IMG/VR virus record: IMGVR_UViG_3300022666_000045
Location: 1-37,310 of that record
Source of the DNA: a virus
Taxonomy: Duplodnaviria > Caudoviricetes
DNA length: 37,310 bases
Strand: one strand, 5' to 3'
The position numbers were made by a program, and so were the translations under genes. The notes beneath the pieces are model-generated. The model searched no databases and had not been told where the DNA came from. It worked only from the letters and a program-made list of their open reading frames with translations. Of this stretch, positions 3,218 through 37,310 are shown piece by piece. Position 1 is the first letter of the stretch; each line of letters starts with the position of its first letter.

Positions 3218-3564
3218 CGATCATAAAACGAGGCGAAATAGTTTGCGTGATTGAGGCTATCCAATACGAGGGGGACAGCACTGTTGCAATGATGATTGCA
3301 CTGCAAGATTTCGATTTCCAGGATGCAATTAATCGTAGCGGGCACGCGGAGGCCGAGAAAAATCAATTCTGGAATTACCCGAAAGATTTTTGCGAATGGC
3401 TTTCGGAAAACAAATTATGCGAATTCGTGGATCATTCAGTTATTGAATTTACGTTTGTACGGAATACTATTGCGTATAATATGTTTCACGTTAGCCATGA
3501 GATGAACGGTGAAAAATGGGCAACGCTCCCGGCTGCGACAGAGGATGATGGAGGTGAGAAATGA
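3214..3564 (+). CDS. hypothetical protein (AT-richer than neighbours)
   Basis: GGAGG RBS before ATG 3214; coupled. Confidence 0.65.
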   Translation: MTIIKRGEIVCVIEAIQYEGDSTVAMMIALQDFDFQDAINRSGHAEAEKNQFWNYPKDFCEWLSENKLCEFVDHSVIEFTFVRNTIAYNMFHVSHEMNGEKWATLPAATEDDGGEK

Positions 3565-4229
3565 GCGAGAACAGGACAGATTGGTACTATCGTCAGATCG
3601 AGAACGCAACGCTGCAAGTTATCAGCGAAAGCGATGGTGTGCGCATTTTTATGCTGCGAAAATATCCCAACAGCACGATGATGAGCACCTATATCATTTT
3701 TGCAGTTGGCCGTATCATCATCACGGGGGATATGCCGGTGCGCGATAACGGCATTATCGCCGCTGGCTACGATCTCGAATGGTTTTCTGGGGGTCTATCG
3801 CCCGATTACCTTGCCGAAAAGTTTCTGGAAAAAGATTTTCATCCCGAGATCGCAATGCGCCAATGGCGGGAAATGATCGATCAGTACCAGACCGAACTGG
3901 ATCAGTTTCGCGCAGAATGCGGAGACGAAGAGCCAGACAACCTGCTCTTGCGCGAAACGGCCTGGCGCTATGATTGGCACAAAGTGCACGGGACGGTCAT
4001 TGATGCGATGAAACTTGTTATCGAGCGCGGCGTTGAGGATTTCGACAGCTACGAGAGCGTAACAGGAATTGCGCTGCGCCAGGACGGCGGCCCTGTAGAC
4101 GAATTTCATCCAGCGAACGATCTTGAGTCAATCGGCTGGGGTTACGACCCAAACGAAATCGGTTGGCTCGCCGCAATTCAACGACGGTTCGCCGAATGCT
4201 ACGCGGCGATGATGGAGGTCGAGAAATGA
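3561..4229 (+). CDS. hypothetical phage protein
   Basis: 222-aa ORF with GGAGGT RBS; contains IIITGD..DYLAEK. Confidence 0.8.
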   Translation: MSENRTDWYYRQIENATLQVISESDGVRIFMLRKYPNSTMMSTYIIFAVGRIIITGDMPVRDNGIIAAGYDLEWFSGGLSPDYLAEKFLEKDFHPEIAMRQWREMIDQYQTELDQFRAECGDEEPDNLLLRETAWRYDWHKVHGTVIDAMKLVIERGVEDFDSYESVTGIALRQDGGPVDEFHPANDLESIGWGYDPNEIGWLAAIQRRFAECYAAMMEVEK

Positions 4230-4516
4230 GCGAGAACACAGAATTGTCAGAACTCCGCGCCGATCTGGCACTGCGCATGGCCGAGATCGAGCGCCTGCGC
4301 GAGACGATCAGCGTGTTGAACGCGCAGATTGAGGCCGCGCCGCGATGGGTGTCGTGTAGTGAGAGACTGCCGGACACCGACGGTATGTATCTGGTGTACT
4401 GGGGTGAGGATGTTTACAGCGCTGAGTATTTCGGTCGTGGTGATGGAGGATGGGGTAATTACGCAAACAAGCGCATTGTGGCCTGGATGACTATCCAGGA
4501 GGTAAAAAATGACTGA
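4226..4516 (+). CDS. DUF551-like phage protein with N-terminal coiled coil
   Basis: RWVSCSERLPD...IVAWM pattern. Confidence 0.75.
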   Translation: MSENTELSELRADLALRMAEIERLRETISVLNAQIEAAPRWVSCSERLPDTDGMYLVYWGEDVYSAEYFGRGDGGWGNYANKRIVAWMTIQEVKND

Positions 4517-6651: not shown

Positions 6652-7233
6652 ATGAGCGGAATAACATGGTCAAACCAAAAACGCAGATTATCGGAACTGG
6701 TGCCCTGGCCGCGCAATCCACGCCAGATCAGGAGCGACCAGGCTAAACGGCTGGCAAAATCGTTCGAAGATTTCGGACAGGTGGAGACAATCGCGGTCGG
6801 CCCGGAAAACGAGGTGTATAACGGTCACCAGCGCCTGAACGTACTCATGCAGCAATACGGTGCAGATTACGAGGTTGAGGTACGCGTATCAAGCCGGGCG
6901 CTAGACGAGAAAGAGCGCGAGCGACTGACAGTGTATTTGCACAAAGGCGCCGCCGGCGAATGGAATTTCGACGAGCTGGCAAATTGGGATTTGCCGGATT
7001 TGCTGGAGTGGGGATTCGGCGAGGCGGAGCTTGGGATATCCATCGATCACCAGGATGGAGACCACGCAGGTGCATCCCCCTGGGATAGAATGGCAGGGGA
7101 TTCTGCCGATGGAGTTTTGTTTCAATTCGGGGCTATCACCTGTCGGGTTGATCAGGCTGTATATGATGCATTTATGGCGTCCTGTCCAAACGATGATATT
7201 GCCGGTTACCTGGCGGGTGTATTTTTGCCATGA
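6652..7233 (+). CDS. ParB/Srx N-terminal-domain protein (packaging-linked type)
   Basis: LVPWPRNPR, SFEDFGQVETI and YNGHQRL; no HTH evident. Confidence 0.85.
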   Translation: MSGITWSNQKRRLSELVPWPRNPRQIRSDQAKRLAKSFEDFGQVETIAVGPENEVYNGHQRLNVLMQQYGADYEVEVRVSSRALDEKERERLTVYLHKGAAGEWNFDELANWDLPDLLEWGFGEAELGISIDHQDGDHAGASPWDRMAGDSADGVLFQFGAITCRVDQAVYDAFMASCPNDDIAGYLAGVFLP

Positions 7234-8444
7234 ACTATTCAATTTTTGACGCGTGCTTCTCGGAGAACAGGCAATCCGGGCGCGGCATGTCTGCCGCATA
7301 TTTGGCGTGGGAGCTAGGGAGACATGGGCTGCAGGAATGCCAGATCGACAAATCTGATTGCATTTTGGCAACATGCCAATCTACTGAGGCGACAGATGCT
7401 ATCAGGGGATTGCGCCGCAAATATCCAGATAAGATCATCGTTTGCGGTGGCGCTGCGTCAACTAGTCCGTATTCCATAGGAAAATTCTGCGATGTTGTTT
7501 GTGTTGGCGACGGGCAAAAATTTTTGTCTGTTCTGTTTGAACATGGTATTAGGGCGGCGGCGCAACTCCCAAATGCATGGGTAGATGGAGAGTCAAGGCG
7601 CGTTGAGATAGATCAGGGTTTCCCGTGGGATATGCCACCTATTCAGGCAGAGGATGGCGCATATCGTATATGGTGCGGGCGCGGATGCAAACACAAATGC
7701 AGGTTCTGCCAAACCGGATGGGCCTACCGTTACTCAGAAAATCCAAACCCGTCAACGGTGGTATCACAGGCAAATACGCTGCTCGGACAGCGCAAAAAAA
7801 TAGCCTATCTGTCAAATGATTTGTCGCAGCACAGTTTTTACAGAGCGCTTCCGGCAACGGAGCATGGGTCATACAGCGTTTCGTTCTTAAAAAAAACAGG
7901 GTCGCTGCCGCCGGCGAGGCAAATACGTCTAGGCGTTGAGGGCGTTTCCGATAGGTTGCGCAAATGCGTCTCAAAACCAATCAGCGACCTAGATTTGTTG
8001 GGTTGCACGCGATGGCTAAACGCCAACGGAAAGAGCGTTAGATGGTTCATGATTGCCGGTTTGCCTGGAGAAACCAGCGAGGATTGGGACGAATTGCGAT
8101 CTATTATTCAACGCTGGAAAATCCAAACATCAAAGGGGGTATTGGCGTTATCGTTTACGGCATTTTGTCCAGACCCGGCGACACCATTTGCTACCGCGGC
8201 GCTAGACGATGGATATTGGCGCAATTTTGAGAAATTCAGGGAATGGTTTTTTGGCGGTCGCGGATGGAGTAATCGTATAAAATTGATGATGCCGCAACAG
8301 CCAGATAGCCGCATGAGGAAGGCCATGCTGTCGATGGGATTGACAGAGGGACAGCTACGCGATGGAGGGCATATGTCTCCAAATGCTCGTCTATTGTATC
8401 CATACGCATCTAATGCGTACAGTGAGGGAACAGCGAATGGCTAA
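7230..8444 (+). CDS. Radical SAM protein with N-terminal cobalamin-binding-like domain
   Basis: RGCKHKCRFC (CxxxCxxC), IIVCGGAASTSP..DVVCVGDGQ, LGVEG and FMIAGLPGET. Confidence 0.88.
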   Translation: MNYSIFDACFSENRQSGRGMSAAYLAWELGRHGLQECQIDKSDCILATCQSTEATDAIRGLRRKYPDKIIVCGGAASTSPYSIGKFCDVVCVGDGQKFLSVLFEHGIRAAAQLPNAWVDGESRRVEIDQGFPWDMPPIQAEDGAYRIWCGRGCKHKCRFCQTGWAYRYSENPNPSTVVSQANTLLGQRKKIAYLSNDLSQHSFYRALPATEHGSYSVSFLKKTGSLPPARQIRLGVEGVSDRLRKCVSKPISDLDLLGCTRWLNANGKSVRWFMIAGLPGETSEDWDELRSIIQRWKIQTSKGVLALSFTAFCPDPATPFATAALDDGYWRNFEKFREWFFGGRGWSNRIKLMMPQQPDSRMRKAMLSMGLTEGQLRDGGHMSPNARLLYPYASNAYSEGTANG

Positions 8445-15044: not shown

Positions 15045-16223
15045 ATGAAAATCCATTGGCTTAGCAACGCACCCTGGGCCGCAACCGGCTACGGCAATCA
15101 AACCGCGGTGTTCGTTCCGCGCATCCACAAACAGCATCCCGTATCTATCACGGCATTTTATGGCCTGGATGGTGGCGTGCTCAACATGGATGGCGTCATG
15201 GTCTACCCGAAGGCCACGCACCCATACGGCCAGGACATTGCCGCCGCCAACGCCCGCAACAACGATGCGCGCGTCATTATTTCGCTGATGGACTCCTGGG
15301 TCTGTGATCCGCGCATGTTGCAGAGCGACGGTATGCTGTGGGCACCGTGGTATCCGGTCGATATGGAGCCTCTGCCGCGCCCGATCCGTGACAATATTTC
15401 TCAGGCATTTGCGCGCATCGCCATGAGCCGCTTCGGTGAGCGCATGACCAACGAAGCCGGGCTGAACTGTTATTATGTTCCGCATGGCGTTGACCAGCGC
15501 ATCTACCGCCCGCTACCGCGCGCTGAGGCGCTGGAACGGCTGCATTGGCCGAATGATCGGTTCACGGTCTCAATGGTCGCCGCCAATCAGGGAAATCCGT
15601 CGCGCAAATCGTTTCAGCAGGCGCTCGAAGCGTTTGCAATGCTGGCTGCAAAACACGATGATGCTCACCTGTACCTGCACACGAACAAATCAGAGCACGG
15701 GGAGCGCGCCGGGGTCAACCTGCCTGAGATCGTCCGGCATCTCGGCATCGAAAAACACGTCTCATTTCCTGACCAGTACGCCTACGCCATGAGCCTGTAC
15801 CCGCCATATTATCTGTGCGATGTATACAACGCGTCCGATGCGCACATGCTGCCATCGATGGGGGAGGGGTTCGGCATCCCAACGCTGGAGGCGCAGGCGT
15901 GCGGCTGCCCGGTGATCGTCGGCGATTGGACGGCATCGAGCGAACTGTGTTTTAGCGGGTGGAAAATCCCAAAGTCGGAGTCTACGCCGTTCTGGACGCC
16001 ACTGGCCGCGTATCAGTACATTGTGCACACCGGCGCACTGTACGAACGCCTTGAGGCTGCGTATCAGATGCGTGGCAATGAGGATTATCGCCGGCGCGCG
16101 GTCGATGGGGCCAAACCGTATCATGCTGATCGTGTGCTCGAAAAATACTGGCTGCCGGTGCTGGCCGATATTGAGGCCAACATCAACGAGCGCCTGACGT
16201 TTGACCAGGCGGTGCGGGCATGA
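15045..16223 (+). CDS. GT-B fold glycosyltransferase (GT4-like)
   Basis: TGYG, VPHGVD, RKS and PSMGEGFGIPTLEAQACGCPVI. Confidence 0.93.
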   Translation: MKIHWLSNAPWAATGYGNQTAVFVPRIHKQHPVSITAFYGLDGGVLNMDGVMVYPKATHPYGQDIAAANARNNDARVIISLMDSWVCDPRMLQSDGMLWAPWYPVDMEPLPRPIRDNISQAFARIAMSRFGERMTNEAGLNCYYVPHGVDQRIYRPLPRAEALERLHWPNDRFTVSMVAANQGNPSRKSFQQALEAFAMLAAKHDDAHLYLHTNKSEHGERAGVNLPEIVRHLGIEKHVSFPDQYAYAMSLYPPYYLCDVYNASDAHMLPSMGEGFGIPTLEAQACGCPVIVGDWTASSELCFSGWKIPKSESTPFWTPLAAYQYIVHTGALYERLEAAYQMRGNEDYRRRAVDGAKPYHADRVLEKYWLPVLADIEANINERLTFDQAVRA

Positions 16224-16834
16224 CGCAGAGTGATGCTATCCTGATCCAGCACGCCTACAGCGGTAGTGATTACAGCCGCATGTTGGCGCAATTCTACGCG
16301 CGCCATAGTGAGTATTGCGGCCTGTGGCATATTGACTATCAGTGCTATGTCGGCGATGTGATCCAGTTAGACCCGCGCCTGGGCGGTTGGGCAAAAATCC
16401 ATCTGATCCGTGAGGCGCTGGTACGCGGATACCAGCGCGTAATCTACTGTGACGCAGACGCGTTCGTGTATGATTTCCGGTCTGACATCCGCGACGGCTG
16501 CCCGCAAGCGCCTGGGTTTGGCGTGACGTGGCACGAGCGCCCGGAACGTCACTGGAACGTCGGGATGCTCTACGTCACCGCCGGACTGCAAACGAATGAA
16601 TTTATCCGCGAGTGGCTGCGGCGTGCTCCAGGTGAGGATGCATGGCATGAGCAGCGGATTTTCAATACGATGGCGACCGAGGATGCGTACCGCGAGACAG
16701 TATGCACTATTGCGGCGAAGTGGAATTCGTGCTATGCTAATAACGAGGTCGCTGACGCAGTCGTGAAATCCTATCACGGTGCAGGATCGGCGCAGGAACG
16801 GTTATCGCTCATGAGAGAGGCTGCAAAATGTTGA
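16220..16834 (+). CDS. GT-A glycosyltransferase (GT34/GMA12-MNN10-like)
   Basis: WAKI, YCDADA (DxD), WNVGM, WHEQ and WNS. Confidence 0.8.
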   Translation: MTQSDAILIQHAYSGSDYSRMLAQFYARHSEYCGLWHIDYQCYVGDVIQLDPRLGGWAKIHLIREALVRGYQRVIYCDADAFVYDFRSDIRDGCPQAPGFGVTWHERPERHWNVGMLYVTAGLQTNEFIREWLRRAPGEDAWHEQRIFNTMATEDAYRETVCTIAAKWNSCYANNEVADAVVKSYHGAGSAQERLSLMREAAKC

Positions 16835-19857: not shown

Positions 19858-20045
19858 GTAGGCGAGTTTGGGAATATCTATCCGGGTACTCCCAACTCGC
19901 CCCGCTCGAATTCGTGATCTGGAACATGGCGGAGCATTTCCATTGGACGCTGGACTACATAGAGTCGCTGCCGGTGGAACGGCTGAGAGAGTACGAACGC
20001 ATCCAGGACGCCAGGAACAAGGCCGGGAAGGGCAGGCGTAAATGA
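19848..20045 (+). CDS. -1 frameshift extension of the tail chaperone (gpGT-like)
   Basis: The -1 frame is open to TGA 20045: LGRRVWEY..AEHFHWTLDYIESLP..RRK. A hairpin at 19861-19901 begins 6 nt after the heptamer. Confidence 0.85.
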   Translation, partial: KKLGRRVWEYLSGYSQLAPLEFVIWNMAEHFHWTLDYIESLPVERLREYERIQDARNKAGKGRRK

Positions 20046-21898
20046 GCACAAAAATTGCAACCCTATTCGCCGAGATCGGCGCCGACACCACAAAATTTGA
20101 CCGTGGTGCTCGTGATACGAAGCGCGGCCTGTCTGATCTGCGTGACGGGTTCGAGGCGTTGACCGGCGTCACTGTCGGCGCGGCTGCCGGCATCGGCGCG
20201 CTGGTCGCCGGCCTGAAATACTCCACCGCTCAGGCGATGGAGAGCGAGAAGGTCATGGCCGCCACAGAGGCGACCATTCGCGCGACCGGCGGCGCCGCCG
20301 GCATGACGGCTGATGAAATCTCAGACCTGGCGAGTTCCGAGAGTCGTCTGACCGCCATCGATGACGAGGTCATCCAGTCCGGCGCGAATATGCTGCTCAC
20401 GTTCAAAAACATTGGCGAGAACACGTTCCCACGCGCTACCAGGGCTATGGAGGACATGGCCGCTGCAATGGCGAACGGGAACATCGCGCAACTTGATTTG
20501 CAATCTACCGCGATTTTGTTAGGCAAGGCTCTCAACGATCCGATTGCTGGCATTGGCGCGCTGACAAAAAACGGCGTCACACTGTCAGACGTGCAGAAGC
20601 AACAGATACGTGATTTCATGGCGGTAAACGACGTCGCCAGCGCTCAGGCCGTCATCCTGGCCGAACTGGAAAGCGAATTCGGCGGGATGGCCGAGGCGAT
20701 GGGAGGCACGAATCTCGGCAAAATTCAGAAGGCGAAAAACGAGCTTGACAATCTTGCGGCGACCATCGGCGAAAAATTGCTGCCGTTTCTCGGTGATGCG
20801 GCTGCCGGCGCTGCAACGCTGATGAGCGCTCAGGACAGGTTGAGCAGCGCATTTCAGGCGCAGGAACAGCGCACACGTGAGACGGCCGGATCATACGAGG
20901 AATACATCACCGAGGTGCAGCGGGCCTATGCTGCGTCTCATCTGTACGGCGTGCGACAGGAGGTGTTGGTCAGGCAGGGTGACGCGCTGAGTGAGGCCAA
21001 TTTCAACGCCGCCAAGGCTGGTCGTGAGGCGAAGGAGAGTTTTGCCGGCATGGCCGGCGCGGCGGCGATGATGAAACAGCCGATGCAGGACGCCGCGGAA
21101 GAGGCCGACATCGTCAAAGGCAAAATGTCCGAATTAGGGCTGTTTATGGCGGGCGACGTTGGGCAATCGTTTGTTGATTTTTCGGACAAAATGAGAAATC
21201 TCGGCGACCAACAGAATGAGATCGTGACCAAAATCTCCGAACTGGAGTCAAAAGCCTGGCTGACGCCGGAGCAGCGCCAGCAGCTTGAGGATTTGCGCGG
21301 CAAATTGGACGACAATAAAAACGCCGTCAAAGAAGCCGCGGACGCATTCGAGAAGGAGTCAAAACGCATCGTATTCTCGATCCTCCAGCAGCGCCTTGCG
21401 TCTGATGGCCTGACAAAAACTGAGGCAGACGCGCTGGTGACGGTCGCGCAAAAATTCGGCCTGATCGACCAGGCAACAAAAATGACGTATGATGCAATTG
21501 GCGACGTTGTGACACAACTGGACGAGGGCAAAATCTCAGCCGATGGCATGGCCGACGCAATCGAGCGTATCAGCGACAAGAACGTGAAAATCGGCATCGA
21601 ATACACAGAGAGCGGGGTATACAACCCATACGGCAACCGCGTAGATGTGCGCGGCGGCGCAGTGTCCGGCGAAAATGCCAATGGCGGCGTGATCATGGCA
21701 GGAGAAACGCGGCTCGTTGGCGAGCGCGGGCCGGAGATGATCTCGACAACCGCACACGCGCAGGTGACGACAGCAGAGACGCTCTCAGGCCAGCAGCAGG
21801 GCACAGGCGGCGCCGGAGGCCAGATCATCATCTACGGCAATCCTACCATCTCACTGTCCGGCGACACTCAAACGATGTTGCAGCAGGTGACTGTATGA
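20042..21898 (+). CDS. Tape measure protein (618 aa)
   Basis: IATLFAEIGADT N-terminus, LGKALNDPIAGIGALT, helical Ala-rich body and LVGERGPE. Confidence 0.92.
   Translation: MSTKIATLFAEIGADTTKFDRGARDTKRGLSDLRDGFEALTGVTVGAAAGIGALVAGLKYSTAQAMESEKVMAATEATIRATGGAAGMTADEISDLASSESRLTAIDDEVIQSGANMLLTFKNIGENTFPRATRAMEDMAAAMANGNIAQLDLQSTAILLGKALNDPIAGIGALTKNGVTLSDVQKQQIRDFMAVNDVASAQAVILAELESEFGGMAEAMGGTNLGKIQKAKNELDNLAATIGEKLLPFLGDAAAGAATLMSAQDRLSSAFQAQEQRTRETAGSYEEYITEVQRAYAASHLYGVRQEVLVRQGDALSEANFNAAKAGREAKESFAGMAGAAAMMKQPMQDAAEEADIVKGKMSELGLFMAGDVGQSFVDFSDKMRNLGDQQNEIVTKISELESKAWLTPEQRQQLEDLRGKLDDNKNAVKEAADAFEKESKRIVFSILQQRLASDGLTKTEADALVTVAQKFGLIDQATKMTYDAIGDVVTQLDEGKISADGMADAIERISDKNVKIGIEYTESGVYNPYGNRVDVRGGAVSGENANGGVIMAGETRLVGERGPEMISTTAHAQVTTAETLSGQQQGTGGAGGQIIIYGNPTISLSGDTQTMLQQVTV
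20538..20670 (+). repeat. 133-bp segment with an inverted copy at 31312-31444
   Basis: Manual alignment gives 117/133 identical. Confidence 0.95.
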
Positions 21899-23838
21899 AA
21901 CTACAGGTAGTATCCTATCGTGGTGCGACCATAACCAGCAGCACGCTATCGGCATGGCTGCCGGTGAGCGCACCGCCAGCGGCGCAAACTCAGGTGATCG
22001 AGATCAACCGCAGCGGCAAATATCCTGCCTATGCCGGCAAATCGTTCCAGTCCTGGACGTTTCCGGTGCAATTCGGCATGACCGGCACGCTGCCTGCGCA
22101 GCAGGTGGATAGCCTGCGCCAGATGTTCGATCTGGAAAACCAGACGCCTGGAACGCTGGTATTCCAGGACGCGGCGGACTCGAATAAACAATATTACGTC
22201 ATGGCAGTTCCTGTGTCTATGCCGTCGTGGGAATATCGGTTCGCACAGGTCAACATGAACGCCAGTGATCCAACATGGCGCAGCATGGACACCTACGCGG
22301 GTACGATTACGGCTGCCGGGAGTGTTGCGTCTGGCACGCTGACGGTTGGCGGAAATCTGTACACCAGGCCGACGATCAGTATCACGCCATCGTCTGCCGG
22401 CACAGTCGGCTATGCCTACCGCGAGTATGTGACGGTGATCAACCAGGCTCCTGTGCCGTTCCAAAATCTCCCGTATGATCTAGGCGGCACAGCCGGATAC
22501 GATACGGCGACGCTGGTTTCTGCCGGAAAAATGCAGGCCACCTGTGCCGATCTGCGCGTGATGGTGGATGGCGTCGAGACAGACTATTGGCTCGACGCGC
22601 CGAACTCCAGCACAACGCATGTTTGGTGCAATCTATCGCTTCCTGGCGGCACAACCTGCGCGCTCGGCACAGCGATTACATCCGGCGGCACAGTGACAAC
22701 GCTCGGAGTCAGGGTTGACGCCACCAACAGCCGGGCGTTTGACGTGTTCCCGTCATCTGGAATTGTACGCATTGACTCAGAGGAATTCGCCTACACCGGC
22801 AAGAGCAAGACCAAAACATCCTACACGCTGACCGGTGTCACTCGCTCGGTGCGCGACACCAGCGCCGGCAATCACAGCGCGAATGCCACGATCTACCAGG
22901 TGGCGCACGACATCCAATTCCTGTACGGCAACCCATCCGCGTCTGCAATCTCGGCGGACGACGCACGCAAACCGATCATCGAATTGACATCGACGAATGC
23001 GGCATGGACATTTGCGAATTTCCAGAGCGCCGATAAACTGCGTTCGGGTGGCTGGACATCGGCCATCGTGACATCTGCCAGCCAGACGGCCGCAGACCTG
23101 ACGCAGCGATCAGACACCTACACGGCCACGCAGGAGACAGACGCAGACCCGGCAAGCGTCATGGGAATGACGGCCAGGGCCTACCAGAAAAAAGCGACCT
23201 GGGCGGCTGAGTCATGCACATTGGCCTGGTCAATCTATCACCCGGCAGGTATCACGCAGGTGGCGGCGTCTGGGAGCAAATACCGCAATGCCACGTCCTG
23301 GCCGTCTACGGCGGCACTGCAAAAATCCACCACCGGCGCTACGTGGACAAATGTTGTCAACCAGACAACGCCCGGAACGGTATCCACCTGGACGGCCTGG
23401 ACGTTCTCTGGGACGTCTCTAGGAGGCACGGTGAATTACATCCGGTTTGCGTTTGCCGGCGCGATTGCTGCCAGCGCCAACGCGCGGGCGTCGTTCGAAA
23501 TCTCGGATGTGACATTGACCATGCCTGCATCGCGTGTGCCGGTAGTCTACCGTAACAGCGAGCAGACCAACTACACACTCACAGCGCGTATCACGAACGT
23601 TACAACCGGCGCTTACATCGACCTCAACTATGGCATGGCGACCGGGAACACGATCACCATCGACACCGAGAACCGCACCGCCACGTACAACGACATCAAT
23701 GCCATTGGCGGCGTCTCGCCGTCTCGCGTCGATGAATGGCTAAAACTCGTACCAGGCGCAAATGAGATTGCCTGGACGACTGAGGCAACAGACGGAACAG
23801 CATCGCTGGTATTTTCGTGGAGGGAGCGAAAAGCATGA
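21895..23838 (+). CDS. Distal tail (Dit-like) protein with large Ser/Thr-rich insertion
   Basis: Follows TMP; C-terminal WLKLVPGANEI..FSWRER; DUF2341-like DLRV..DYW. Confidence 0.75.
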   Translation: MKLQVVSYRGATITSSTLSAWLPVSAPPAAQTQVIEINRSGKYPAYAGKSFQSWTFPVQFGMTGTLPAQQVDSLRQMFDLENQTPGTLVFQDAADSNKQYYVMAVPVSMPSWEYRFAQVNMNASDPTWRSMDTYAGTITAAGSVASGTLTVGGNLYTRPTISITPSSAGTVGYAYREYVTVINQAPVPFQNLPYDLGGTAGYDTATLVSAGKMQATCADLRVMVDGVETDYWLDAPNSSTTHVWCNLSLPGGTTCALGTAITSGGTVTTLGVRVDATNSRAFDVFPSSGIVRIDSEEFAYTGKSKTKTSYTLTGVTRSVRDTSAGNHSANATIYQVAHDIQFLYGNPSASAISADDARKPIIELTSTNAAWTFANFQSADKLRSGGWTSAIVTSASQTAADLTQRSDTYTATQETDADPASVMGMTARAYQKKATWAAESCTLAWSIYHPAGITQVAASGSKYRNATSWPSTAALQKSTTGATWTNVVNQTTPGTVSTWTAWTFSGTSLGGTVNYIRFAFAGAIAASANARASFEISDVTLTMPASRVPVVYRNSEQTNYTLTARITNVTTGAYIDLNYGMATGNTITIDTENRTATYNDINAIGGVSPSRVDEWLKLVPGANEIAWTTEATDGTASLVFSWRERKA

Positions 23839-27848: not shown

Positions 27849-28238
27849 ATGGGAGAATTGTTTCAGTCTCGTAAGTTTTGGGCGCTGATCATTGCGCTCA
27901 TGGTCGTGATCGTCGCTCAGTTTGCGCCGGGTGTCTCTGGAAACCTGGATGCGCACGCCGATGAATTGGCTGGCGGTCTGGTGGTGCTGTCGGCCTATAT
28001 CGTGGCTGTGGCGCTCGACCCTGGGAGCGGATGGCGCGGTCTGTTGCAGTCGCGCAAATTCTACGCTGCCCTGATCGGCGTCGTGCTGACTGTGCTGTCT
28101 GTGTTTGACATCGCTCTACCGGCTGGCATCACCGGCAATCAGGTGGAGTACATCCTGTACACTCTCAGCGCCTATATTGTTGCCGTTGCGTTTGAGCGGC
28201 AAAAACTGCCGGATAACACGCAAAACGGTCAGGAATAA
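27849..28238 (+). CDS. Holin-like protein with internal duplication
   Basis: LFQSRKFWALI/LLQSRKFYAALI and LSAYIVAVA each occur twice; four TM segments. Confidence 0.7.
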   Translation: MGELFQSRKFWALIIALMVVIVAQFAPGVSGNLDAHADELAGGLVVLSAYIVAVALDPGSGWRGLLQSRKFYAALIGVVLTVLSVFDIALPAGITGNQVEYILYTLSAYIVAVAFERQKLPDNTQNGQE

Positions 28239-28503: not shown

Positions 28504-29190
28504 CTACCAGTTTATATTTGCGAAATCTTCCCAGGCGGCAATGATGTTATGACAACTCCGGCGGAAGGCTTCATAATTTGCGTCATTTCCCCAACCGATA
28601 TCGCCGACTTCGTACATGTTTACCCAATGACCGTGTTGGCCTTTCTTAGATCTCCAAAATCGGCAACGATGAGCCATTTTTCCAGCCATATTTCCATCCG
28701 CGGATATAACCCCTGGAAGATGAGCGCAGATTTTCATCTGCGCGTGTGGCGATCCGCCCAACAGGTGAACCGGCCAATCGAGAAAATCCCACAACGGCAA
28801 TTCAGAACCTCCGAATTTTGTCGGAACGCTATACGCTAAAACGACCTGTTTTCCCCCAATCGTTTTAGGGAGTTTTCTCACGCCGCCCTGTACCTTCGGG
28901 ACAATCAAGACCCGCTGAACGTATTGCGCCGCCTCCTCTGCCCATGACAAAACCTCGTCCAATTGATATTCGTACTCCCAATCAAGGACGGTTGCCATTT
29001 CAGGACGGAGATCCGCCAGGGATGCCATATACCGTTCGCGGTTTGGGTTTCTCCAATCCTGGTCGGCGAAGTGGATGGGATGGTAAACTGTGCCAGGCAA
29101 TTGAGCGCCGAGCTTATATCCTGATTCATAGGCAATATCAGAAAGGCGCCTATTTCCACCGTAACAAAATATCAGAGTTGGAGCCGCCAT
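28504..29190 (-). CDS. DUF6610-like TIM-barrel protein related to tRNA-guanine/DpdA transglycosylases
   Basis: FADQDW, TVLDW, LIVPK, VHLLGGSP and ISADGN; GGAGG RBS before ATG 29190. Confidence 0.65.
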   Translation of the reverse strand: MAAPTLIFCYGGNRRLSDIAYESGYKLGAQLPGTVYHPIHFADQDWRNPNRERYMASLADLRPEMATVLDWEYEYQLDEVLSWAEEAAQYVQRVLIVPKVQGGVRKLPKTIGGKQVVLAYSVPTKFGGSELPLWDFLDWPVHLLGGSPHAQMKICAHLPGVISADGNMAGKMAHRCRFWRSKKGQHGHWVNMYEVGDIGWGNDANYEAFRRSCHNIIAAWEDFANINW

Positions 29191-29480
29191 AATATTAACC
29201 TCCGCCCGGACGGGGAGACTTCTATTCCTTCGCATTCGAACCCATGCCGCCTATACCATTCGTTTGCTGGTAAATCCGTTGGGCATTTTGCGAATAAACT
29301 CACTGCCCCCGCTGTTGTTCGCAGAATATCGAGCATCTTCCGCGCGGAACCGGGCTTTGTGCTGATAATTTCCCTGATGGTCAGCTGACCATCGCGACGC
29401 AGGTGCCAACGGCAAAATCCGCCATCGATTAAAAGCAATTCTCCGCGCTTAAAGCTTTCGTGCAACGCTTCAAAGATCAT
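29172..29480 (-). CDS. GNAT-family acetyltransferase (minimal)
   Basis: LTIREI..PGSARKML and AKCPTDLPANEWYRRHGF (GNAT motif B). Confidence 0.8.
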   Translation of the reverse strand: MIFEALHESFKRGELLLIDGGFCRWHLRRDGQLTIREIISTKPGSARKMLDILRTTAGAVSLFAKCPTDLPANEWYRRHGFECEGIEVSPSGRRLILWRLQL

Positions 29481-29630: not shown

Positions 29631-30554
29631 TTAGATCAGCTTACCCTGCTCATCATCGCCAGCTTCGATGATGGCATCGACAATCTGACAGGTCAGGCCG
29701 CGTCTGCGGGCCTCGATCAGATATTCCACAGCCGACATCAACTCATCGCGTTTGGCGCGGGCATTGTCGTTTCCTGGCTTCATCGCGCCGAGTGCGCCGA
29801 ACAAATCCGCCAGCTCGCTGTCTGCGAATTTTCCGAGTGGCTTACCATACCGCACGCTGTGGATTGACTCCACCTCATCCGTGCGTTCGATGGTGAAAAC
29901 CATCTCAGCAGCGGCAGGCTGCGCAGGCTGTTCAACGGTGACTGGTGCTGGTGCGGGTTGTTCCTGTTTCACGACGGCATCAACCGGGTGATCGTCATGC
30001 GCCAGTTCGTCCGATGTGTATAACCCGCTCGTTTCCTGAGGAAACGCTTTGCGCAGCGCCAACGCCTCTGCACATTTTGCCAGCATCACATCTGGCATCT
30101 GGCTCCACAGGCCAGCAGGATTGCCGTCCCTGCCATTTTGGACATATGCGCCAAACCGCGCCACGCCCCAAAACGGTTCGCGGCAATTCGTTTTCAGAAC
30201 GCCGACCTTCGCAGCGGCTGGAGGCTGACTACTCAGCCACACATCGCGCCACACTCCATCCTGACCGCACCATAACGGGCCAAGCTGGCCCTCGTATTTG
30301 CCTGAGCGGTCTGCGATCAAACGCAGGCCATCAATGCTCACCTGCACGCTCATGACCTCGCGCCCGGCGCGTTTGTCCCATCGTTTGATGGCATAAATCT
30401 GGCGGGCGAATGGGTTCAGGCCGGTGCTGTTGGCGATGTTGACGAACAATGCAAGCTCGTCATCGGTTGCACCATTCGCAATGGTGCGTTTGATGAGCTC
30501 GATCTGTTCCTGGGCTAATCCGCGTTGTTGAGTAACAGATAATTGATTATCCAT
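29631..30554 (-). CDS. bet: Bet/RecT single-strand annealing recombinase
   Basis: GATDDEL..GLNPFARQIY, VSIDGLRLIADRSG and MLAKCAEALALRKAFP. Confidence 0.93.
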   Translation of the reverse strand: MDNQLSVTQQRGLAQEQIELIKRTIANGATDDELALFVNIANSTGLNPFARQIYAIKRWDKRAGREVMSVQVSIDGLRLIADRSGKYEGQLGPLWCGQDGVWRDVWLSSQPPAAAKVGVLKTNCREPFWGVARFGAYVQNGRDGNPAGLWSQMPDVMLAKCAEALALRKAFPQETSGLYTSDELAHDDHPVDAVVKQEQPAPAPVTVEQPAQPAAAEMVFTIERTDEVESIHSVRYGKPLGKFADSELADLFGALGAMKPGNDNARAKRDELMSAVEYLIEARRRGLTCQIVDAIIEAGDDEQGKLI

Positions 30555-30561
30555 GCAATCC

Positions 30562-30864
30562 TCACATTCCTGGCCGCAGACTGTCGATAGTCGCGGCGCA
30601 ATCAGCGGCTTCCTCATCGAGCGCCGCATTTGGGTTATTGAGAGCATCGGCGCGTGCTTTGGTGAGCGCAGACCAGGCATCAAACTCCGCACGCTCTGCG
30701 GCATGCATCCTGGTCAAATTACCGCTCGACGGGCAACCATCGTAGGCGTCAATCGCCTCAGTCAACTCGTCCAGTTTTTTGTGCCATTCGTCCTCAAGCC
30801 GAACGATCAGCGGATCAATAGGCCTGTGTGTCGGGCGTTGGTCGAACCATGTTGCGTTCTCCAT
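30562..30864 (-). CDS. hypothetical protein
   Basis: AAGGAG RBS before ATG 30864. Confidence 0.7.
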   Translation of the reverse strand: MENATWFDQRPTHRPIDPLIVRLEDEWHKKLDELTEAIDAYDGCPSSGNLTRMHAAERAEFDAWSALTKARADALNNPNAALDEEAADCAATIDSLRPGM

Positions 30865-30876
30865 GCGAGCTCCTTT

Positions 30877-30932
30877 CCTGTGCATCCATGATAGCACTGG
30901 ATGCACAGGCGTGCTAGTGACATTTGTAACTA
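30877..30932 (-). promoter_or_regulatory. Promoter with CRP-like box (30915-30932) and a 12-bp inverted repeat around the -10
   Basis: TAGTGACATTTGTAACTA; CCTGTGCATCCA/TGGATGCACAGG flanks the minus-strand TATCAT. Confidence 0.7.
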
Positions 30933-31982
30933 TTTTGCAAACTCTGCGTACATCTGGCGCCCGAAATCATGGTACACAGCGCTCATCACCTGGGCGCGGT
31001 GCTCAAAGAGCTCCTGCATCATCACGCGCCCACTCGACCACGACAGGTTCGTCCACGCTTCCAGGTGCGCATCCAGCGCCCGGCGTGCGGCCAACAGCGC
31101 GCCCTTGCGCAGATCATATTTATCATCGCTGTGGCAGGTGGCGTATCCGAGCGCCGGAAAAATTGCATGGTCGCCGATGCGCCCGGAGACGATGCAGGCC
31201 GTGATCTGGCCCCACGCGAACACATCGAACCGCACATCCTTGACGGCGATTACCAGGCGGTCGCTCTGTGTAGCTGTGGCAATCGGATTGACGGCATCGT
31301 CCCGCAAACACTCCAGATCGGCGAGGATGACAGCCTGAGCGCTGGCTACATCGTTTACCGCCATGAAATCCTTGATCTGCTGTTTTTGCACGTCTGACAG
31401 TGTGACACAGTTTTTCGTCAGCGCGCCAATGCCGGCAATCGGATTTTTTGCGTCGTCCCGCAAACACTCCAGATCGGCGCGGGAGTCATTGATTTCTGCG
31501 CGCAGGTCGTCGATGTGATCCATCACCCGTTTTGCGGCGCCCGCAGGGCCACCGACGCACGCAAATGGAACGGCTTCTGCGTATCCACTCGCATGGCGCA
31601 GACACGACAATAGAGAGTCTCTCCATGCGTCATGACTGCCCCGCATGATTTCGCTTTCCGTGCTCCATTTCTCGCACTGTTCGCGCAGCCGTTCATTCTC
31701 CGCGCGTAACTCAACATATTTTTCTCTCATCAATGTGATCAATTCCGCGATCTTGGTTTTGACGGTTTCTGGATTGGTGCGGTCGATGCTGTATTTGGCG
31801 CCGTTGATCCCGACATCCAGGCATCGAAGCGCTGCGTCTTGCCAGGCGCTCGCGCGCTGTTTTTCATATACGGCTGAGCATTCGGCGGTATTGAGCTTGC
31901 AACTGAGACTCTCAATCTGCGCGCTCAACACCGCGATTGTTGCGGATGTCTCCGCACTGTTTTCACGTTCATTCTCGCTCAT
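30930..31982 (-). CDS. Chimeric coiled-coil protein carrying a tape-measure fragment
   Basis: 350 aa; contains NPIAGIGALTKNCVTLSDVQKQQIKDFMAVNDVASAQAVILADLE, nearly identical to TMP. Confidence 0.85.
   Translation of the reverse strand: MSENERENSAETSATIAVLSAQIESLSCKLNTAECSAVYEKQRASAWQDAALRCLDVGINGAKYSIDRTNPETVKTKIAELITLMREKYVELRAENERLREQCEKWSTESEIMRGSHDAWRDSLLSCLRHASGYAEAVPFACVGGPAGAAKRVMDHIDDLRAEINDSRADLECLRDDAKNPIAGIGALTKNCVTLSDVQKQQIKDFMAVNDVASAQAVILADLECLRDDAVNPIATATQSDRLVIAVKDVRFDVFAWGQITACIVSGRIGDHAIFPALGYATCHSDDKYDLRKGALLAARRALDAHLEAWTNLSWSSGRVMMQELFEHRAQVMSAVYHDFGRQMYAEFAK
31312..31444 (-). repeat. Copy of TMP 20538-20670, flanked by 46-bp direct repeats (31278-31323 and 31434-31479)
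   Basis: Manual alignment; the flanking repeats are 41/46 identical and 156 bp apart. Confidence 0.95.
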
Positions 31983-32227
31983 TTCTGTTTCTCCTCGCTC
32001 GTAATATCCACAACAGCAGCGCCGCCGTGGTTGTGACCATCATACCGCGCCGTGAGGCCGTGTAGCTCACTGTTTGTATTCTCGATCTCGCTGGACATCT
32101 GCGCCAACTCGATCTCGATCTGAGCCATGCGGCGCTCAATATAGCCTGCGCGTGCCGATAGCTGGTATAACTGTTCCGCCACCAGCATGCGGATTTTATC
32201 GCCAAAAATAATTTCAAAAACATTCAT
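31979..32227 (-). CDS. Small coiled-coil protein
   Basis: GGAGG RBS before ATG 32227; coupled to the next gene. Confidence 0.7.
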   Translation of the reverse strand: MNVFEIIFGDKIRMLVAEQLYQLSARAGYIERRMAQIEIELAQMSSEIENTNSELHGLTARYDGHNHGGAAVVDITSEEKQK

Positions 32228-32244
32228 GTGCGCCTCCATGTACA

Positions 32245-32316
32245 ATGATACAGTTTCCGCAGCCGTAAATCTAGTGACATTTGTCACTATTCCAGGCGGC
32301 CAGGAGTGTGTATTAT
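32245..32316. promoter_or_regulatory. Divergent promoters sharing the palindrome TAGTGACATTTGTCACTA (32272-32289)
   Basis: -10 TATCAT (minus) and TATTAT (plus) lie symmetrically around the box. Confidence 0.8.
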
Positions 32317-32345
32317 TGAGATACGTCTAGTTTTTGGAGGTTAGC

Positions 32346-32477
32346 ATGGATAGCGTGCAGTTAGCGTATGTGTATTGTTGCTTTGGCGCGATTGTGTTTT
32401 TCGCAATCGGAGCGGTATTGTCCTGGTGCGTCATCCGCGCTGGTGCACTCTCAGACCGCAACGACCGCATCGAATAA
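32346..32477 (+). CDS. Small single-TM protein (43 aa; not in the ORF track)
   Basis: GGAGG RBS; MDSVQLAYVYCCFGAIVFFAIGAVLSWCVIRAGALSDRNDRIE. Confidence 0.7.
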   Translation: MDSVQLAYVYCCFGAIVFFAIGAVLSWCVIRAGALSDRNDRIE

Positions 32478-35634: not shown

Positions 35635-35849
35635 GTATTGCATACGATGTGTACCACGACGGCAAATACAAATACACCGTGCACCTGGATGGTGCGCATA
35701 CCAGCACGCAGCCAGTACGATCACTGGCGCCGCAATTCGTAGCCGAACGCCAGAAAACGCAGATACCGCACGCATCAATCCACGCAAACACGGACAGAGT
35801 AGTGACATTTGTCACTATTATAGCGGTATCGGATGTCGTATCATGGTAG
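35631..35849 (+). CDS. hypothetical protein
   Basis: ATGA coupling to the helicase; its 3' end overlaps a promoter. Confidence 0.45.
   Translation: MSIAYDVYHDGKYKYTVHLDGAHTSTQPVRSLAPQFVAERQKTQIPHASIHANTDRVVTFVTIIAVSDVVSW
35800..35844 (+). promoter_or_regulatory. Promoter with palindrome TAGTGACATTTGTCACTA (35800-35817)
   Basis: Identical to the 32272 box; TATCAT at 35839 has the same spacing. Confidence 0.8.
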
Positions 35850-36046: not shown

Positions 36047-37310
36047 TCCGCATGGCAGACCTATTCTGCGGCGCGGGTGGCACATCCACCGGAGCCGTTC
36101 ACGCAATCCGAAAACTCGGCCTCGATATCGATCTTACGGCCATCAATCACTGGTCGAAGGCCATCGAGACCCACGCCGCAAATCACCCAGGCGCTCGCCA
36201 CCTGTGCGAGAGCCTGGATAACGTTGACCCCCGAAAATTATTTCCAGGCGGCTATCTCGATCTGCTGGTAGCATCGCCGGAATGCACACACCACAGCATC
36301 GCTCGCGGCGGTCGCCCGATCAATGATCAGTCCAGGGCCTCGGCCTGGCACGTGCTGCGTTGGGCCGAGGCGCTCTACATCGAAAACATCCTGGTCGAGA
36401 ACGTCCCAGAATTTATAACCTGGGGGCCACTCGACAAAGATGGCCGTCCGATCAAGAGCCGTAAGGGCGAGACATTCCTGGCGTTCATCCAGGCGCTGCG
36501 CTCCCTGGGATACAACGTCGAGCACCGGGTGCTGAACGCTGCCGATTACGGCGACCCGACAACCCGCCAGCGGTTGTTCATTCTCGCCCGGCGCAGCAAT
36601 CCGGTCAGGTGGCCGGAGCCAACGCACTCAAGGAGCGGAGATTTGGGCTTCCTCGGAAGCCACCGCCGCTGGAAAGCGGCCCGTGATGTCATCGACTGGA
36701 GCATTCCCGGCGAATCGATCTTCACCAGGAAAAAGCCCCTGGCCGAGAACACCATGCGCCGCATTCGCCGCGGCCTTGAGAGGTTTGGGGGATACCCGTT
36801 CGTCATCGGACAGCAAAGCTGCTCCGCCCCCCGCGGCGTAGACCAGCCCGTGCCGACCGTCGCCGCCGCTGGCGCAATCTCTCTGGTAGAGCCGTTCCTG
36901 GTCGAGTACCACGGCGATGACAGAGGCCGCGAGCGCATCCGCTCGCTGAATGATCCACTACCGACCCAGGACACATCAAACCGATTCGCTCTATGCCAGC
37001 CGTACATCGTCGCCCTGAACCACGGTCAGGACGACTGCCGCTCATACTCGCTCGATGCGCCGATGCCGACTATCACCAGCGTGGACGCCTGGGGCCTGGT
37101 AGAGCCGTTCCTGGTGCGCTACAACGGCACCGGGGCCGCGGTCAGCGTGGATGAGCCAATGCCAACGCTCACCGCCAAAGACCGCTTCGGCTTGGTGATC
37201 CCGCTCACCGATGGCGGGCAGGCTGTGGTAGACATCCGCTTCCGCATGTTGCAGCCGCACGAACTCGCCGCTGCCATGTCGTTTCCCGCGGACTACCGCT
37301 TTGCCGGCAA
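36043..37310 (+). CDS. DNA cytosine-5 methyltransferase, 5' part (continues across the junction to 209; about 449 aa in total; absent from the ORF track)
   Basis: Manual translation from ATG 36043 gives MIRMADLFCGAGG (motif I), VASPECTHHS (motif IV), ILVENVPEF (motif VI) and TTRQRLF (motif VIII). It is in the same frame as 9..209. Confidence 0.93.
   Translation, partial: MIRMADLFCGAGGTSTGAVHAIRKLGLDIDLTAINHWSKAIETHAANHPGARHLCESLDNVDPRKLFPGGYLDLLVASPECTHHSIARGGRPINDQSRASAWHVLRWAEALYIENILVENVPEFITWGPLDKDGRPIKSRKGETFLAFIQALRSLGYNVEHRVLNAADYGDPTTRQRLFILARRSNPVRWPEPTHSRSGDLGFLGSHRRWKAARDVIDWSIPGESIFTRKKPLAENTMRRIRRGLERFGGYPFVIGQQSCSAPRGVDQPVPTVAAAGAISLVEPFLVEYHGDDRGRERIRSLNDPLPTQDTSNRFALCQPYIVALNHGQDDCRSYSLDAPMPTITSVDAWGLVEPFLVRYNGTGAAVSVDEPMPTLTAKDRFGLVIPLTDGGQAVVDIRFRMLQPHELAAAMSFPADYRFAG
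37184..37310. repeat. Terminal direct repeat, copy 2
   Basis: Identical to 1-127. Confidence 0.97.

Follow-up and report, generated by a model that had tools for sequence, protein, structure and literature searches.

Genes at the locus

The window analysed, the whole 37,310-nt stretch of DNA, corresponds to an entire virus record and has terminal repeats of 127 nt; its completeness was estimated at 56% by CheckV. Siphovirus-type head and tail genes occupy 8.8-28 kb, a leftward block contains the gene for a RecT-family single-strand annealing protein (29631..30551, minus strand; PF03837, E 1.5e-30, and PHROG), and primase, replisome organiser and helicase genes lie from 32.4 kb. A holin-like gene was seen at 27849-28238. 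No tyrosine integrase or serine recombinase was found in the genome, and neither an endolysin nor a repressor was found among the ORFs scanned.

The accessory gene ORF350 (30930..31982, minus strand), which has the RecT gene two genes downstream, encodes three parts: an N-terminal region of long helices and coiled coil (31452..31982), a piece homologous to the phage's own tape measure protein (TMP), hereafter the graft, and a predicted C-terminal dsRBD-like alpha/beta domain (30993..31259; Z 5.9-6.0). A ribosome binding site, GAGGAG, lies upstream, and an ATGA overlap links ORF350 to the preceding 82-aa coiled-coil ORF (31979..32227, minus strand), to which it is translationally coupled. The codon-usage score was positive solely in frame 0 of the coding strand for all three parts of ORF350; across the graft core two of the six frames are open.

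In the structural model of ORF350 (mean pLDDT 75, pTM 0.34) long helices extend to residue 177 and are followed by the three graft helices and by the alpha/beta domain, which has four strands. The graft helices were modelled with a pLDDT of 85-97, driven by the TMP rows in the alignment. No hydrophobic segment that could serve as a membrane anchor was detected in ORF350 (best 19-residue hydropathy 1.14).

A palindromic, promoter/operator-like motif of 21 nt is present in three copies in the window, compared with none in 100 shuffles: at 32271..32291, ahead of the operon of the 82-aa ORF and ORF350; at 30914-30934, ahead of the RecT operon; and at 35799-35819, ahead of ORF 35855. Each copy is followed 23-24 nt on by TATCAT and then by a ribosome binding site. 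The motif is likely a phage-specific promoter/operator, and its occurrence ahead of three units suggests that ORF350 is expressed non-late, likely in an early operon. The promoters linked to the palindrome were not called in a sigma-70 scan.

The N-terminal part of ORF350 has short exact runs in common with ORF 4226-4516. Three such runs of 13-15 nt, of which one falls where the repeat described below begins, are shared with the start of that ORF, a level which was reached in 4 of 2316 sliding windows, including those over ORF 4226 and the TMP gene. Judged from these comparisons, module shuffling appears to be at work among the accessory genes here, ORF350 being already a patchwork. ORF 4226-4516 (plus strand) itself encodes a 96-aa coiled-coil and DUF551 protein, and shares with 31880-31990 (minus strand) the start context, a 30-nt piece and a 14-nt run. 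In the same region, a 31-nt direct repeat at 3544-3573 and 4208-4238 covers the ribosome binding site and first codons of two adjacent genes; the gene at 3561-4229, flanked by these repeats, therefore resembles a swappable cassette.

A protein of 322 aa, P0145, shares the C-terminal domain with ORF350 (37% over 90 aa) and has a coiled-coil N-terminus, but lacks the TMP piece. A comparable architecture is that of the lambdoid protein Ea22, described in the available portion of PMC10834534 as a short N-domain, a coiled coil and a variable C-terminal domain. The two are alike in combining a coiled coil with a swappable C-domain and in their position beside recombination genes in an early operon, which for ORF350 is a presumed one. 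They differ in the C-domain itself and in that the phage of ORF350 has no integrase; Pfam and PHROG scans yielded no sequence match between Ea22 and ORF350.

The graft and its flanking repeats

The TMP gene (20042..21898, plus strand) codes for 618 aa and was recognized by the PHROG TMP profile (E 1.6e-24); the viral matches of its model in Foldseek were gpH-type TMPs. The first-pass annotation had reported that 31312..31444 (minus strand) matches 20538..20670 of the TMP gene (plus strand) at 117/133 nt. This was reproduced by blastn within the window (E 2e-42) as an ungapped match, codon for codon, with both segments in frame: TMP residues 167-210, which form three helices of a conserved globular domain, correspond to residues 181-224 of ORF350, and the two fragments are identical at 41 of 44 residues. 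The segment includes both of the junction microhomologies described below; the unique core between the repeats (31324..31433, minus strand; 110 nt) is identical to the TMP gene at 97/111 nt over 37 codons. The longest exact word common to the two genes is 20 nt, shorter than a 31-mer.

The 16 differences had been divided into ten synonymous ones and six giving G>C, R>K and E>D, and these counts hold (two, three and one nucleotides, respectively). Two of the 16, a synonymous change at A169 and the E>D change, fall inside the repeats, and are therefore letters of the host gene and not changes of the graft. At TMP position 190, where the R>K replacement spans three nucleotide changes, K is found in 119 and R in 10 of 150 TMP homologues, and K in the graft; in this alignment R in the resident TMP is the derived state and K in the graft the family residue. 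At position 178 the graft has C where 149 of the 150 homologues have G, although conservation is inflated in this sample since the homologues were picked by similarity to the graft. On this comparison G>C is the one clearly graft-specific change, and it breaks an invariant glycine. In the same alignment, selected on the graft segment, the graft region ranks 12th in conservation among 575 TMP windows of 44 aa.

The dN/dS of the insert, a calculation proposed with the original observation, was 0.08 for the unique 37 codons compared with the resident TMP (dS 0.56, dN 0.043), and 40% of the synonymous sites differ. This synonymous bias does not show selection acting on the graft.

The graft lies between two direct repeats of 46 bp, 156 nt (52 codons) apart, which encode ADLECLRDDA(K/V)NPIA as first described and are identical at 41/46 positions. 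Copy 1, upstream in the gene (31434..31479, minus strand; ADLECLRDDAKNPIA), ends with the entry microhomology; copy 2 (31278..31323, minus strand; ADLECLRDDAVNPIA) begins with the exit microhomology. All five differences between the copies are located within one block of 7 nt (P 0.0004 if the five sites are independent), outside of which the copies are identical over 27 and 12 nt. The longest exact word between them is thus 27 nt, again shorter than a 31-mer. That the block was derived from a copy lying close by upstream is no more than suggestive, as the 7-mer is found 20 times on both strands.

The microhomologies with TMP that had been noticed at the junctions were confirmed: the last 11 nt of repeat 1 (entry) and the first 11 nt of repeat 2 (exit) each match the TMP gene at 10/11 nt, so that short homology to the donor gene family is present on both sides of the graft. 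A mini-CRISPR array was considered for the repeat arrangement and rejected: the spacer would be 110 nt long, the repeats overlap the TMP match and the coding frame is kept.

The possibility that the graft is an assembly chimera, built from TMP reads of a co-occurring phage, was addressed with two Logan assemblies (runs X1 and X2), in each of which the genome is one contig of 37,213 nt, at depths of 51.4 and 67.8. Over 30800-32450 these contigs had no other letters and no gaps, and there was no joint skipping the insert. A misassembly at the junctions had been named as one refuting outcome; both junctions were found unchanged in the two contigs, at 51x and 68x, from one study. The two runs are possibly the source of the window, and contigs drop rare variants. 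X1 and X2 are identical over 14 kb, so that the population looks clonal.

All the datasets holding the sequence come from this study, and no RNA runs are listed among them. The common origin of the holders, and the fact that the evidence consists of contigs, speak for a chimera; against it, the two contigs are identical to each other and to the source record at every base of the two junctions, the exact words shared with TMP and between the repeats are below 31 nt, and the reading frame is kept. We consider a chimera extremely improbable. The graft is real and apparently fixed.

Donor and origin of the graft

In a tree built from 38 TMP-type segments, the graft groups with the resident TMP as its sister (98/90), their branches measuring 0.083 and 0.073, respectively. 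The closest TMP donor, which the first-pass annotation had proposed to find, did not emerge beyond the resident gene: DNA-level searches, including 51 of the 64 parts of one set, gave 98/132 nt for the best other locus, compared with 115/132 nt for the phage's own TMP. From the sister placement and this distance the donor would be either an unsampled close sister or an earlier allele of the phage itself.

Protein searches gave a similar picture. When the whole of ORF350 was compared with a set of 5.8 billion proteins, from which those longer than 613 aa are excluded, six TMP-type matches were obtained besides itself; in that set the C-terminal part had no match and a profile of the flanks retrieved only ORF350 and P0145. 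A second search was made in a set of 1.84 billion representatives, with one protein per 50% cluster and the best 150 of 180 matches considered. The length exclusion in one set and the clustering in the other mean that a close donor TMP could be hidden. The homologue search that had been suggested brought up no other protein carrying the graft, nor did the two protein sets or IMG/VR scans yield a close orthologue without it. In 23 loci around RecT relatives the N-terminal part, the C-terminal part and the graft were all absent, and cultured phages had neither a grafted copy nor an ungrafted orthologue.

The TMP match extended beyond the graft segment in 150 of the 151 TMP-matching proteins, among the matches listed; the exception, P0032, in which it was confined to the segment, sits on a contig of 506 nt. 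No second copy of the segment was seen in 128 cultured phage records (one place each), in 42 loci, many of them fragments, or in six whole records (one match each). Within these limits the graft appears as a singleton, and as far as the searches reach the insert is unique to this genome, which the first-pass annotation had named as one part of a refuting outcome. A transfer in the opposite direction, with TMP as the recipient, was rejected, the segment being universal in this TMP family.

Also rejected was a scenario in which the phage took the segment from its own TMP long ago and the copy then drifted neutrally: about 24 nonsynonymous changes would be expected and 3.5 were seen (P 7e-7). Such a deficit of nonsynonymous changes relative to neutral decay means that the donor was a different TMP or that selection has acted on the graft. 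The duplication must date from the capture, and the divergence of the repeat copies can be used as a clock: outside the 7-nt block there are no differences at about 9 synonymous sites, compared with 40% between graft and TMP (P 0.013; Fisher 0.036). This favours a recent event, although P rises to 0.12 when the two synonymous changes of the block are counted as independent point mutations, and gene conversion could cause the likeness of the copies.

A rival proposal is that the graft was captured long ago from the own TMP lineage and kept by purifying selection as a structural module, such as a helical spacer or oligomerisation element, with no mimicry. The equal lengths of the graft and TMP branches and the single nonsynonymous change assignable to the graft branch agree with this proposal, and the two synonymous repeat differences could be ordinary divergence. 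It is harder to reconcile with repeat flanks identical over 27 and 12 nt, with the lack of relatives among the sequences searched, which a long-lived graft should have left, and with P0145, a protein that combines the same C-domain with a coiled-coil N-terminus and manages without the TMP piece. We regard such an old module as unlikely.

The first-pass annotation had offered a double template switch or Bet-type annealing, with capture either from a related phage or long ago with later purifying selection. The mechanism, combined with a related-phage donor, fits the data and is the best reading; the old capture under purifying selection is weakened by the repeat clock (P 0.013-0.12) and by the broken glycine. 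Taken together, the in-frame copy of 44 TMP residues is, in our judgement, probably a recent acquisition from a sister phage, through two crossovers at microhomologies, and probably a tolerated passenger in a linker rather than a decoy.

The proposed course of events would be as follows. An ancestral gene would have carried a single copy of ADLECLRDDAxNPIA. In the course of co-infection or replication, a strand whose end lay at the NPIA codons would have paired with the DPIA codons of a related TMP by means of some 10-11 nt of chance homology; the RecT encoded next door probably assisted. About 110 nt further on, the strand would have rejoined the host gene at the ADLE codons. Because these lie 45 nt upstream of the point of leaving, 46 bp would have been duplicated. 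Exit at NPIA and return at ADLE gives exactly the order repeat-insert-repeat. Frame and C-terminal domain were preserved after the capture. The 12% divergence from the resident TMP would then be divergence between the two TMPs from before the capture, with G>C as the one probable later change. Both ancestral states, the donor TMP and the ungrafted allele, are ones that we infer, neither having been found in the searches above.

Sites at which the host gene and TMP agree in sense orientation at 10/11 nt occur often, and 40 of the 54 overlapping 11-nt windows (junction windows included) are in frame. Since these sites are mostly in frame, an in-frame product needs selection for an intact host gene only.

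The available text of PMC3945230 describes Rad52-like recombinases (Red-beta, RecT, Erf) as acting on short, diverged homologies, and intragenic phage exchanges of about 100 bp as frequent, illegitimate recombination being much rarer. The graft resembles this intragenic mosaicism in being a piece of about 100-130 bp exchanged between related phages, with RecT adjoining and short homologies at its junctions. It differs in having entered a non-homologous gene and in having duplicated 46 bp of the target, whereas the exchanges described in that portion of PMC3945230 occur between homologous regions through homologies longer than 10-11 nt. Because the microhomologies are shorter than those, and illegitimate recombination is much rarer in the same account, the role of RecT is unproven; the identity of the recombinase is conjectural and a replicative template switch fits equally well.

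Two observations run counter to a simple scar. No variant of the insert was present in the contigs (51x, 68x), although a perfect repeat of 27 nt beside RecT should favour its popping out, a point tempered by the clonal look of the population; and the graft falls on almost the most conserved stretch of TMP, in a gene whose C-domain has a fold like that of an anti-defence sponge. As a neutral scar, the locus shows cleanly, with the duplicated target still readable, how segments are added to phage accessory genes; a fragment of a virion gene pasted in frame through microhomologies of 10-11 nt is then an illustration of a known process.

The C-terminal domain and TMP-directed defences

The model of the C-domain gave tied structural matches to Acb4 (Z 6.0, rmsd 2.8-2.9, 74-75 aa), Rv1738 (Z 6.0) and Rv2632c (Z 5.9); the alignments span 72-75 residues and the Z scores are middling. 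The predicted domain contains the dsRBD-like three-strand core with following helices, a fold common to the nucleotide sponge Acb4 (PF13876, SPO1 gp1.3) and to Rv2632c/Rv1738 (PF08962). It differs from Acb4 in being fused to an N-terminal part of 240 residues and in being tied with folds that are not sponges.

PF13876 gave no match to ORF350 at E<=1 and none in the genome at E<=10, while the control SPO1 gp1.3 was recovered at 1.5e-8. A weak collinear alignment with Acb4 was obtained (24% over 49 columns, E 0.036). Of the ten Acb4 residues in contact with the ligand (K36, F48, E49, V56, Y57, F62, N63, I66, T70 and K81), one is identical in ORF350, where these positions read Q, F, P, C, H, Y, D, K, L and E in a weak hhalign register (probability 1.4%). 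PDB sequence searches with the C-domain returned nothing relevant. By these comparisons the modelled C-domain is Acb4-like in fold only, and its family may be sponge-like and distinct from PF13876. Acb4 is covered in bioRxiv 2024.12.30.630793; going by the part available, its supplementary homologue alignment may bear on the membership of ORF350. The C-domain of ORF350 is a common small viral domain of the CHxDDxYDxxxGxxLAxxRA type, with atlas clusters of 61-176 members.

In the TMP model a confident globular domain extends over residues ~61-240 (~180 residues; pLDDT mostly 95-98), and the graft corresponds to its helices 167-176, 183-194 and 198-210. Among relatives, the stretch matched by Pfam TMP_2 stops close to the position equivalent to TMP residue 190. 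The TMP model had no PDB match in Foldseek at E<=0.001.

The first-pass annotation had proposed that a non-late copy of this segment could act as a decoy for TMP-targeting defences. Such an early TMP fragment would occupy an Avs18-like sensor, a SNIPE-like nuclease or a Tab-like blocker without triggering it, and defences of these three kinds exist. According to the available parts of PMC13581612, Avs18 senses a central, conserved helical TMP segment of about 130 residues, which alone is enough to kill, and Avs sensors read whole folds through extensive interfaces; in Mu TMP the epitope is 62-196 (supplementary file 7). No sequence alignment was obtained between Mu TMP and this TMP family (TMP_3 and TMP_2, respectively). 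SNIPE, in the accessible portion of PMC13190303, binds TMPs and meets them during injection. For Tab, the part of PMC10884400 at hand describes dependence on the C-terminal region of TMP and a countermeasure in the form of a separate Tab-binding protein.

The graft shares with the Avs18 target its origin in a conserved helical TMP region, and it lies within the conserved globular domain, its helices being modelled with high pLDDT, though with TMP rows driving the alignment. The low dN/dS, the likely early operon and the consideration that a decoy would have to be a fragment that does not activate are also in line with the proposal. In addition, ORF350 could be a composite anti-defence protein in which the C-domain (Acb4 Z 6.0) would be a nucleotide sponge.

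Other features weigh against a decoy. The graft is a singleton among the sequences searched, where a decoy would be expected to occur in at least two lineages and to show selection acting on the copy; its low dN/dS is explained by the history of the donor. It comprises 44 of the ~180 residues of the domain, without the invariant LGKAL and FGG flanks and with an invariant glycine broken, and is far shorter than the ~130-residue region sensed by Avs18. Going by the same part of PMC13581612, the conserved segment alone triggers death, and a faithful copy would be a trigger. Tab is directed at the TMP C-terminus, and its known counter is a Tab-binding protein and not a TMP copy, as far as the accessible text of PMC10884400 goes; SNIPE would act at injection, before new protein could be made, if the account in PMC13190303, itself available in part, is followed. 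No TMP-fragment decoy was described in the literature among the matches listed (titles and abstract openings).

No positive evidence for the proposed decoy emerged. The graft is a singleton within the limits given above and consists of three helices from a larger predicted domain, Tab acts on the C-terminus, and no integrase through which a prophage could express the gene was found. A third of a domain with a broken invariant glycine would be a poor mimic, while the C-domain, with its possible anti-defence fold, still lends the idea some weight; we hold a decoy to be rather unlikely. The most specific form of the idea is that ORF350 is a composite anti-defence protein caught at birth, in which a truncated TMP PAMP from a sister phage, carried on an early coiled-coil protein with an Acb4-like sponge domain, would occupy Avs18-like receptors without activating them. 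This form we judge improbable. If it held, a counter-defence would have been built from a virion gene by one recombination event; and protection by the fragment against TMP-sensing immunity would show phages to be capable of turning pieces of their own PAMPs into receptor decoys.

The annotation had also raised the possibility that the fragment disrupts a competitor's tail assembly. As a dominant-negative weapon, it would poison the tail assembly or DNA injection of competing phages, and TMP, of which each tail contains few copies, makes a sensitive target (PMC10884400, in the part available). A fragment 41/44 identical to the phage's own TMP should, however, poison its bearer first. No positive evidence for this activity was obtained, and expression from a prophage is unsupported, there being no tyrosine integrase or serine recombinase. 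Ltp and HK97 gp15 are membrane or secreted superinfection-exclusion proteins that act on TMP; ORF350 differs from this class in having no hydrophobic segment, and hence no membrane anchor, and its phage differs in having no integrase. A weapon of this kind seems to us very unlikely. The tolerated linker passenger remains the reading that we prefer.

Further features were recorded elsewhere in the genome. A repeat of 213 nt in the C5 DNA methyltransferase gene (36846-37140) was considered as a second graft and rejected, being an internal protein repeat of 71 codons. A contig of run X2 matches 22783-22815 and has on both sides a CRISPR-repeat-like sequence, for which no exact match was found in GTDB genomes; from this arrangement 22783-22815 is a probable target of a host CRISPR spacer. 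A radical SAM gene (7230-8444) lies between a ParB-like gene and the terminase, two glycosyltransferase-like genes (15045-16834) follow the capsid gene, and a PAPS-reductase-like gene and DUF6610 are found at 783-1937 and 28504-29235. Going by these gene assignments, a role in DNA or capsid modification is possible for the radical SAM, glycosyltransferase-like, PAPS-reductase-like and DUF6610 genes.
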